Source: a phage. Taken from it: a stretch of DNA of 64,000 bases. The notes under the pieces were generated by a model. The model was not told the DNA's origin. It ran no database searches and saw nothing but the letters and a program-made list of their open reading frames with translations. Position 1 is the first letter of the stretch. The number at the start of each line of letters is the position of its first letter. Both the position numbers and the translations under genes were made by a program. Of this stretch, positions 31,468-31,972 are shown piece after piece. The stretch lies in sequence record PV874203.1; one strand, given 5' to 3'.

Positions 31468-31652
31468 TCAGTAAGAGACCACAGAGAGTCACCTATGCGG
31501 GCATTGTCATTCCTGATGAGATCTTTAATTTTATCCACATCAGTTAAGTGTGTTACGTTCAAGATATCCTTAACCTCTGGGGCATATTTAAATATGGCAA
31601 CAATACTTTTATGATCTTCAGCATATCTTTCTAGAACATAAACTACGCTCAT
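31452..31652 (-). CDS. hypothetical protein
   Basis: 66-aa ORF. Confidence 0.35.
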   Translation of the reverse strand: MSVVYVLERYAEDHKSIVAIFKYAPEVKDILNVTHLTDVDKIKDLIRNDNARIGDSLWSLTEWTLW

Positions 31653-31972
31653 GCGACGTTAGCCTCTTTATGAAGTCTGTAAACAGCTGTCGCCATACAA
31701 GCAACAGCCTCATTGTGTGGGAGATGCATCCCTGTAGAACCATCCCAATCTTTGAACTCATTGTCAAAGACTCCGGTAGGCTCTGGATATAAGGCTTGCA
31801 ACTCAACCAAATCATTAGCAACTTGTTGCCATTTATCATCAGACCAGATAGGGTCATCCAACCAGTAATACAAATAGGAATGGATGATCAATTGCCTTCT
31901 GTGCCGATTGATTACTTCAGCGGGACTTATCTCACTTCCATTTGAAGTCCTAAATGTATCACTGTCAATCAT
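31649..31972 (-). CDS. stand-alone protein resembling NAD-dependent DNA ligase domain Ia
   Basis: RHRRQLIIHSYLYYWLDDPIWSDDKWQQVANDLVELQALYPE resembles the LigA N-terminal Ia segment (HxYxYY..D.P.I.D..YD). Confidence 0.4.
   Translation of the reverse strand: MIDSDTFRTSNGSEISPAEVINRHRRQLIIHSYLYYWLDDPIWSDDKWQQVANDLVELQALYPEPTGVFDNEFKDWDGSTGMHLPHNEAVACMATAVYRLHKEANVA

Follow-up and report, generated by a model that had tools for sequence, protein, structure and literature searches.

What use would a phage without a detectable DNA ligase have for a protein that resembles only the N-terminal domain, domain Ia, of such an enzyme? The question is raised by an open reading frame (ORF) of 107 amino acids (aa) in the phage sequence record PV874203.1, of which a stretch of 64,000 nucleotides (nt), hereafter the window, was analyzed. 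The ORF product is almost certainly a member of the stand-alone, or solo, Nlig-Ia family, i.e., a non-catalytic protein of about 100 aa in which a helical hairpin like that of domain Ia of LigA, the ligase dependent on nicotinamide adenine dinucleotide (NAD+), carries a putative pocket for nicotinamide mononucleotide (NMN) and is followed by an ordered loop and a third helix. As for its role, the reading that we favor, with a probability of roughly 40%, is that of a non-catalytic module that binds NMN or NAD+ and couples NAD+ to the sealing of nicks on phage DNA by the LigA of the host. The window belongs to a phiEco32-like coliphage (Gordonclarkvirinae) with a nucleotide identity of 90–95% to many Kuravirus records, and the gene lies between thyX and phoH, in synteny with the orthologous genes for phiEco32 gp62 (95% identity to the ORF product) and ECBP2_0056 (74%).

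Membership in the family is carried by profile comparisons and by the predicted fold. The protein matches the Pfam model PF22745 (Nlig-Ia, “DNA ligase-like N-terminal NAD+-binding domain”) from position 1 to position 91 of 92, at E=2.5e-35 and 121.4 bits against a cut-off of 27, and the same model is matched by 66 of 66 aligned relatives; in addition, PHROG 6466 is matched at E=3e-42. The homology to LigA was established by profile, hhalign, and fold searches, the single-sequence search of the PDB being insufficient for this purpose, with LigA matches that are marginal (E 0.05–0.14). With a profile of the 66 relatives, about 20 NAD+-dependent ligases come on top in the PDB, always through ligase residues ~3–60, and the best match is the E. 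coli LigA-NAD+ structure (5tt5, E=4e-4). Against an alignment of nine LigA N-termini, hhalign gives a probability of 96% (E=2.4e-9) and pairs columns 16–66 of the solo proteins with LigA residues 3–53, while LigA is also ranked top in the fold searches. The AlphaFold2 model is predicted with confidence (mean predicted local distance difference test, pLDDT, 91.6; predicted template modeling score 0.84) and has helices at residues 17–38, 45–61, and 88–106 with an ordered loop at 62–87 (pLDDT 85–94), so that the LigA Ia-type hairpin by which membership in PF22745 is judged is present. Among the models of BFVD, none but other solo phage proteins match over the whole domain (template modeling score 0.7–0.9); for full-length phage ligases, the match is confined to ~48 residues. 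An earlier note on this DNA, made from the letters alone, had quoted residues 23–64 of the protein as resembling domain Ia, and no other part, of an NAD-dependent ligase; Pfam, hhalign, and the fold searches agree, placing the likeness in residues 17–61, and the similarity to the Ia profile, whose lack of significance would have spoken against that resemblance, is significant by both profile search and hhalign. One further candidate, the polymorphic-toxin immunity protein Imm41 (PF15592), was matched at residues 32–67 and set aside as probably a chance match, with E=3e-4, 21 bits against a cut-off of 26.9, and only three of the 66 relatives showing it.

In LigA, a pair of tyrosines of domain Ia stacks the nicotinamide ring (PMC7470946), and the positions of this pocket are compared in Table 1. 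The residue register was taken from the LigA probe alignment and from hhalign; the solo counts refer to 267 proteins, and the ligases are E. coli LigA and eight phage-encoded LigAs used for diversity, the scan of contigs for LigAs having given only Enterobacteriaceae at 88–100% identity. The solo family keeps the aromatic sandwich and the equivalent of Asp32, and most of its members, including the window protein, have Gln in place of Asp36. Nothing sets the window protein apart from the rest of the family. It has the majority pocket type, YYDWQ; within the family, it falls in a Kuravirus-type subgroup with a conserved N-terminal extension of ~16 aa.

Table 1. Pocket positions of domain Ia in E. 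coli LigA and their counterparts in the window protein, the solo family, and the ligases compared
E. coli LigA	Window protein	Solo family	Ligases
Tyr22	Y35	Y 265/267	Y 9/9
His23	Y36	Y 265/267	H 3, Y 6
Asp32	D45	D 266/267	D 9/9
Tyr35	W48	W 243, F 16, Y 7	Y 8, W 1 (Clostridium phage c-st)
Asp36	Q49	Q 209, D 37, other 20	D 9/9

A second motif, F73-x-x-W76-x-G78-x-T80-G81-x-H83-L84-P85, lies in the ordered loop and is invariant in 66 of 66 close relatives, among which 18 positions are invariant in all; in the wider set of 267 members the counts are 267 for F73, 265 for G81, 259 for L84, 249 for W76, 239 for T80, and 220 for H83. Neither the profile nor hhalign aligns this region to LigA, which has a TPDSPTQRVG linker there, and our guess is that the loop completes the ligand site. 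An invariant motif of this sort next to the hairpin, together with a Gln at position 49 in 209 of 267 members where all nine ligases have Asp, would also fit a sponge, that is, a protein that binds some other nicotinamide- or ADP-ribose-derived molecule, such as an immune signal, nicotinic acid mononucleotide, or nicotinamide riboside, its pocket being remodeled (Tyr35 to Trp, Asp36 to Gln) and supplemented by the loop. Phages are known to use small proteins of one domain, e.g., Tad1, Tad2, and Acb2, to take up signaling nucleotides. This explanation is kept alive by the change from Asp to Gln and by nothing else, and we consider it quite improbable.

Ligase activity of the protein itself can be set aside, and a separate ligase was looked for with single-sequence probes, namely E. 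coli LigA (tblastn, and phmmer on six-frame translations) and the ATP-dependent ligase of T7. Searched with the LigA probe, neither the window nor the whole 77.5-kb phiEco32 genome gives a match other than that of LigA residues 11–51 to the Nlig-Ia ORF, and the T7-type probe finds nothing. No LigA-type or T7-type core was found in the whole genome of Arthrobacter phage Soondubu, nor within ±10 kb of the Nlig-Ia gene at 87 loci, 80 of them from IMG/VR and totaling 1.13 Mb. Pfam scans of 28 ORFs, which take in all those of at least 250 aa that are not syntenic to phiEco32 genes annotated as structural, DNA polymerase, or primase/helicase, detect no ligase domain, nor PF01653 in the Nlig-Ia ORF. 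Likewise, neither Pfam nor the LigA probe reveals an OB, Zn-finger, HhH, or BRCT domain in the 107-aa protein; when a genuine phage LigA was scanned in this way, each of these domains was detected. The statement of the earlier note that no adenylation or OB domain follows the ORF in the window is thus upheld by the LigA and T7 probes and by Pfam; its suggestion that related phages be checked for a full-length ligase at this position is answered for phiEco32 in the negative: its complete genome has only the solo ortholog gp62 and no ligase core that the probes could detect.

Since the protein lacks the nucleotidyltransferase lysine and the OB, Zn, HhH, and BRCT parts, it cannot ligate DNA. The GenBank name of many of its orthologs, “NAD-dependent DNA ligase”, is a mis-annotation, because the scores against the NCBIfam models lie far below the LigA equivalog cut-offs (15.9 bits against 369 for NF005932 and 13.7 against 444 for TIGR00575), with matches at model positions 3–46 only. 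Solo proteins of ~100 aa labeled “DNA ligase” or “NAD-dependent DNA ligase” occur in many records of Escherichia, Arthrobacter, Clostridium, Erwinia, and Rhodococcus phages. Such labels, present in dozens of GenBank records including that of a fusion protein of Rhodococcus phage ReqiPepy6 described below, wrongly imply that these phages are self-sufficient for ligation. Another set of genes with ligase-like names is located at 40593–46878 on the minus strand of the window, where ATP-grasp, glutamine amidotransferase, amidoligase_2, and “phiEco32-like COOH-NH2 ligase” genes are found; this is the known phiEco32 cluster for peptide or metabolite modification and is unrelated to DNA ligation.

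The window phage has its own polymerase (26866–28587), primase-helicase (37657–39447), and 5'-3' exonuclease (19683–20525), and because this set comes without a detectable ligase, the phage probably depends on the LigA of its host. The same consideration bears on the possibility that the protein is a dominant-negative inhibitor of host LigA, in which a free Ia domain would block the adenylation domain or sequester the cofactor and thereby shut down replication and repair of the host. Homology to a domain that docks on the LigA adenylation domain would fit such a role, as would the clamp-binding-like tails of some relatives (see below), which would place the protein where LigA works. An inhibitor would be self-defeating, though, as it would starve the phage of the only ligase at its disposal, and this also applies to the other ligase-less phages and to lambdoid prophages that use the whole host replisome; inhibition is, in our view, improbable.

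The earlier note also offered the idea of a ligase remnant. The ratio of nonsynonymous to synonymous substitution rates (dN/dS) is 0.154 against ECBP2_0056 (dS 1.24), 0.137 against phiEco32 gp62, and 0.120 for ECBP2_0056 against gp62, at dS values of as much as 1.4, and the gene is accordingly under purifying selection. Furthermore, the family is large: a word-indexed search returned 139 relatives, with 120 among the matches listed measuring 69–185 aa, and an exhaustive search with a hidden Markov model through 1.84 billion representatives returned 1,090 with E≤1e-3, of which 592 have E≤1e-10, the best 150 of these 1,090 cluster representatives being almost all 60–190 aa long. That the match is limited to the first ~50 residues of LigA is what a decaying remnant of a full-length phage ligase gene, or a mis-called ORF, would predict. 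Purifying selection, the 1,090 cluster representatives, the near-invariant residues together with a motif that LigA does not have, the solo occurrence in unrelated phages, the conserved start and stop, the apparent translational coupling to the neighboring genes, and the confident, compact predicted fold all stand against it, and we regard the remnant, like the mis-called ORF, as refuted.

The window protein is not the first of its kind, and the finding is already known as a computational description, from Pfam PF22745 and from Iyer, Burroughs, Anantharaman, and Aravind (Viruses 2022, 14, 1977; PMC9503650); a stand-alone, Ia-only protein in a ligase-less phage is no new kind of object, having been published in 2022 and given a curated Pfam family. 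According to that paper, the solo Nlig-Ia protein occurs in 81 phages, with ECBP2_0056 as the named example, these phages encode no ligase catalytic module, with one exception, and the proteins are proposed to be NAD+ sensors or shields against NADase effectors. The lack of a ligase core in the genomes and loci probed here accords with the statement on ligase modules. Our literature search retrieved no later paper and no experimental work on any member of the family. The suggestion of the earlier note that the protein binds NAD+ or NMN, or modulates LigA, agrees with the prediction of Iyer et al. and with the conserved residues of the NMN pocket, and is plausible.

The published proposal, in which the protein would report a depletion of NAD+ caused by NADases or protect the NAD+ pool, in either case independently of a ligase, was made for exactly this family and with the ortholog ECBP2_0056 as the example (PMC9503650). 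The conserved pocket residues and the lack of a ligase module in the phages tested are consistent with it, and phiEco32 has in addition a gene for a Macro domain, a component of the NAD/ADP-ribose network. This gene, gp37 (“Appr-1-p processing”, 34833–35273 of the phiEco32 locus L003), is absent from the window phage (21765–21908), where the sigma-factor gene (21120–21764) is directly followed by the gp39 homolog (21909–22259), and its absence with retention of the Nlig-Ia gene counts against the proposal. Other points against it come from the surroundings of the gene. A census with Pfam took 150 neighboring ORFs (at least 130 aa, within ±5 kb of the gene) at the first 19 of the 36 loci that dereplication had left; the 25 most frequent of the 48 families matched include no NAD-salvage, Macro, ART, SIR2, Nudix, or ligase family and no anti-defense neighbor, and the ORF protein matches no PADLOC-DB model at E≤1. 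Regarding the shield in particular, NAD+ in E. coli is at millimolar level, and it is quantitatively implausible that a stoichiometric binder of ~100 aa could protect such a pool; a sensor would need an output, for which the solo protein shows no evident candidate. On balance, a sensor or shield is viable, if rather unlikely, and it overlaps with the coupling of NAD+ to host LigA, because an NAD+-sensing input on replication proteins would look similar.

What the surroundings do contain are genes for replication and for nucleotide metabolism. The census is led by DNA_pol_A (6), HNH (4), PhoH (3), and Metallophos (3), followed by Thy1, dCTP deaminase, DnaB_C, and 3'-5' exonuclease (2 each). In Arthrobacter phage Soondubu the solo gene stands directly after those for DNA polymerase I and a primase/helicase, in Clostridium phage phiCTP1 it lies among genes for the beta-clamp, a resolvase, and the clamp loader, and in Erwinia phage Phobos it is placed between those for thymidylate kinase (dTMP kinase) and thymidylate synthase, while in the early-left operon of a lambdoid prophage it accompanies genes for a CI-like repressor, DnaB, an integrase, and a 3'-5' exonuclease. 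The Nlig-Ia gene thus recurs in replication or nucleotide-metabolism modules of unrelated phages. Soondubu also carries, as gene 4 (L187:3698–5719), a fusion of a capsid maturation protease with a VIP2-like ADP-ribosyltransferase, an enzyme that consumes NAD+.

A closer connection with replication is suggested by the architecture of several relatives. At the C-terminus of 24 of 180 family proteins (~13%), a divergent Pro-rich linker ends in the pentapeptide Qxx[LMI]F, in the form of QMSLF (7), QASLF (4), QMALF (3), QLSLF (2), and others, whereas shuffled tails lead to an expectation of 0.10 and a maximum of 3 in 1,000 shuffles. The full set of 266 proteins has 28 tailed members, 25 of which have the YYDWQ pocket, as in the window protein. 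Bacterial proteins that bind the clamp have QL(S/D)LF as their C-terminal consensus; in E. coli, ligation is accelerated by the clamp, which is in contact with DNA ligase (PMC9690074). The tailed relatives (P0018, P0026, P0028, P0029, P0035, P0040, P0058, P0067, P0072, P0086, P0109, P0117, P0120, and others; loci L023, L026, L034, L035, L038, L063, L085, and L091) are encoded on metagenomic contigs with few annotated neighbors. Several of them have an internal PALFDAP element, and in some, by listing order P0086, P0109, and P0120 (179–185 aa), an insert of ~100 aa with a weak ribosome-modulation-factor-like match precedes the tail. Neither the linker nor the tail is mentioned in the passages of Iyer et al. 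(2022) that were consulted.

Two further cases link the domain to a helicase and to a ligase. In gp102 of Rhodococcus phage ReqiPepy6 (L189:8168–9796, plus strand; 542 aa, annotated as “DNA ligase”), a solo-type Nlig-Ia domain (E=1.6e-32, with the motif FDGSTGFHLP) is joined to a superfamily 2 DNA helicase, identified by phrog_62 (E=8.7e-63), a Walker A GTGKT, and weak DEAD, ResIII, and Helicase_C matches; gp102 has no ligase core, and its helicase part has no PDB sequence match. The counterpart of the fusion in ReqiPoco6, Gp102, appears in BFVD (D4P7X0). The Erwinia jumbo phage pEa_SNUABM_48 encodes a full LigA (gene 00077, L178:1474–3429) whose own domain Ia is truncated and lacks the TPDSPTQRVG segment, and, 32 kb from it, a protein of 204 aa with a solo-type Nlig-Ia domain of the Asp-pocket type (gene 00124, L186:2169–2780). 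This ligase may have its Ia function supplied in trans, and the phage may be the “one exception” of Iyer et al..

Other architectures, ascribed to the individual proteins by listing order, are two or three tandem Nlig-Ia repeats (P0220, 321 aa), a C-terminal part shared by P0183 and P0209 (290–315 aa) that matches phrog_13900, “minor head protein”, which is uninformative and could be a gene-call fusion, and a zinc-ribbon-like CxxC...CxxC extension (P0009, 167 aa). A Pfam scan of the longer family members found no extra domain.

We favor the coupling of NAD+ to host LigA because the replisome or a ligase core, and not NAD+ metabolism or defense loci, is what the domain is tied to by the tails of clamp type, by the fusion with a helicase, and by its pairing with a LigA whose Ia is crippled. 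The tails, the fusion, and the consistent replication context suggest that the solo protein is part of the replication machinery and not a free sensor of NAD+. In mechanistic terms, the protein would bind the nicotinamide-nucleotide end of NAD+, or NMN, and would act at the replication fork and not as a free cytosolic factor. It might then present or hold NAD+ for the adenylation domain of LigA, or dock on that domain as Ia does in cis, and the outcome would be that LigA is helped on phage DNA, especially when NAD+ is scarce. A more specific version, which we put forward tentatively and think rather doubtful, is that of a replisome-directed adaptor, whose Ia-like surface with bound NAD+ would dock on the adenylation domain of host LigA and recruit or charge the enzyme at phage forks, with attachment through some contact in Kuraviruses, through a tail that binds the beta-clamp in other lineages, and through the fused helicase in Rhodococcus phages. 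The helicase fusion and the clamp tail could just as well be taken for an input by which replication proteins sense NAD+, as the sensor proposal would have it.

Several points weigh against the coupling of NAD+ to host LigA. The window protein has neither a clamp tail (its end, ...YRLHKEANVA, contains no clamp-binding pentapeptide) nor a fused partner, so that its link with the replisome is borrowed from relatives, and the two proteins with the most direct tie to a ligase or a helicase, Erwinia 00124 and ReqiPepy6 gp102, have an Asp-type pocket and not the Gln type. In 78% of the sampled members, including the window protein, the equivalent of LigA Asp36 is Gln, against Asp in 9/9 ligases, and because of this change the ligand of the solo family may differ from that of LigA. 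Host LigA, moreover, has a covalently tethered Ia at very high effective concentration, with which a copy in trans would have to compete or to which it would have to add. Because phage genomes are densely packed, little weight can be given to a location among replication genes, and the tests for the absence of a ligase used single-sequence probes and covered ±10 kb only, except for phiEco32 and Soondubu.

The positions of the gene, its parts, and its surroundings are collected in Table 2. The spacing between the TAA stop of thyX and the ATG of the Nlig-Ia gene is 2 nt, which suggests translational coupling, and the Nlig-Ia TGA overlaps the ATG of the downstream 66-aa gene (ATGA); because of these two junctions, the gene appears translationally embedded in an operon. 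The unit bracketed by the two hairpins is composed of a small membrane ORF, thioredoxin, thyX, Nlig-Ia, two small ORFs, phoH, and two further ORFs. A scan for sigma-70 promoters found fewer sites than expected by chance, promoters of the phage sigma factor being outside the scope of the tool.

Table 2. Positions in the window of the stand-alone Nlig-Ia gene, of the parts of its product, and of neighboring features
Feature	Position	Strand	Basis
Stand-alone Nlig-Ia ORF, complete, 107 aa	31649..31972	minus	ORF list; ATG start
Residues 17-61, two-helix hairpin homologous to LigA domain Ia, with NMN-pocket positions Y35/Y36/D45/W48/Q49	31790..31924	minus	
Residues 73-85, family-specific second motif F-K-D-W-D-G-S-T-G-M-H-L-P, long ordered loop	31718..31756	minus	
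Residues 88-106, third helix completing the solo domain	31655..31711	minus	AlphaFold2 model
thyX (flavin-dependent thymidylate synthase), upstream gene	31975..32631	minus	Pfam Thy1, E=1.5e-44
66-aa ORF, phrog_30988, downstream gene	31452..31652	minus	ORF list and PHROG
Terminator-like hairpin, 12-bp stem and T run, upstream of the transcription unit	33131..33158	minus	Consensus scan only
Terminator-like hairpin closing the transcription unit	29763..29786	minus	Consensus scan only

The closeness of the Nlig-Ia start to the thyX stop in the window also invites the explanation that the protein is an accessory of ThyX, for instance in handling its NAD(P)H reductant, and thymidylate synthase or kinase genes are near Nlig-Ia in ECBP2, Erwinia Phobos, and ReqiPepy6 as well. 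Such a role is very improbable, given that the two genes do not stay next to each other: in phiEco32 and ECBP2 they are separated by a further gene, no thyX is nearby in the Arthrobacter, Clostridium, Enterococcus, and lambdoid contexts, and Thy1 accounts for only 2 of the 150 census neighbors. The intervening gene is the 61-aa gp63 in phiEco32 (L001:5819–6004) and a 159-aa gene in ECBP2, with no gene at the corresponding place of the window (31973–31974).

Elsewhere in the window, there are three HNH_3 endonuclease ORFs, all on the minus strand (33721–34215, 19195–19704, and 26409–26804) and dispersed over the early and middle region, one with NUMOD4-like and one with AP2 domains. The first of those listed has no counterpart at its position in phiEco32, where gp67 and gp68 are adjacent, and probably represents an inserted mobile homing endonuclease. 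At 35764–37164 (minus strand), the 466-aa homolog of phiEco32 gp73, which is annotated as hypothetical, shows a weak, sub-threshold match to the poly A polymerase head domain, a Pol-beta-type nucleotidyltransferase (E=0.0019, 18.9 bits against a cut-off of 23).

The importance of the matter is modest and lies in part in the size of the family, with its 1,090 cluster representatives, at a time when NAD+ is recognized as a central battleground of phage-bacterial defense. Should the adaptor described above exist, phages that lack a ligase would have in it a new means of capturing an essential enzyme of the host, and it would provide a direct mechanistic link from NAD+-depleting defense systems to failed ligation of phage DNA.

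Among known systems, the phage pathways of NAD+ reconstitution and the Tad-type sponges would be comparable only if the sensor, shield, or sponge explanation were right, and the window protein has no homology, fold, or gene context in common with them. Those systems are enzymes or oligomeric sponges with demonstrated ligands. Compared with the partners of the beta-clamp, which end in QL(S/D)LF, the likeness is with the 24 of 180 relatives that have such a tail and that may, to judge from it, bind the clamp. Domain Ia of LigA (~1–69 in E. coli) shares the hairpin with the window protein, which retains counterparts of Tyr22, His/Tyr23, and Asp32 and has Trp as its second stacking aromatic; the differences are the change of Asp36 to Gln, the lack of attached nucleotidyltransferase, OB, Zn, HhH, and BRCT domains, and the replacement of the TPDSPTQRVG linker by the ordered F..W.G.TG.HLP loop and a third helix. 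The closest likeness is to the stand-alone Nlig-Ia family itself, with which the window protein shares the full-length profile match, the solo architecture, the largely conserved pocket, and a ligase-less genome.

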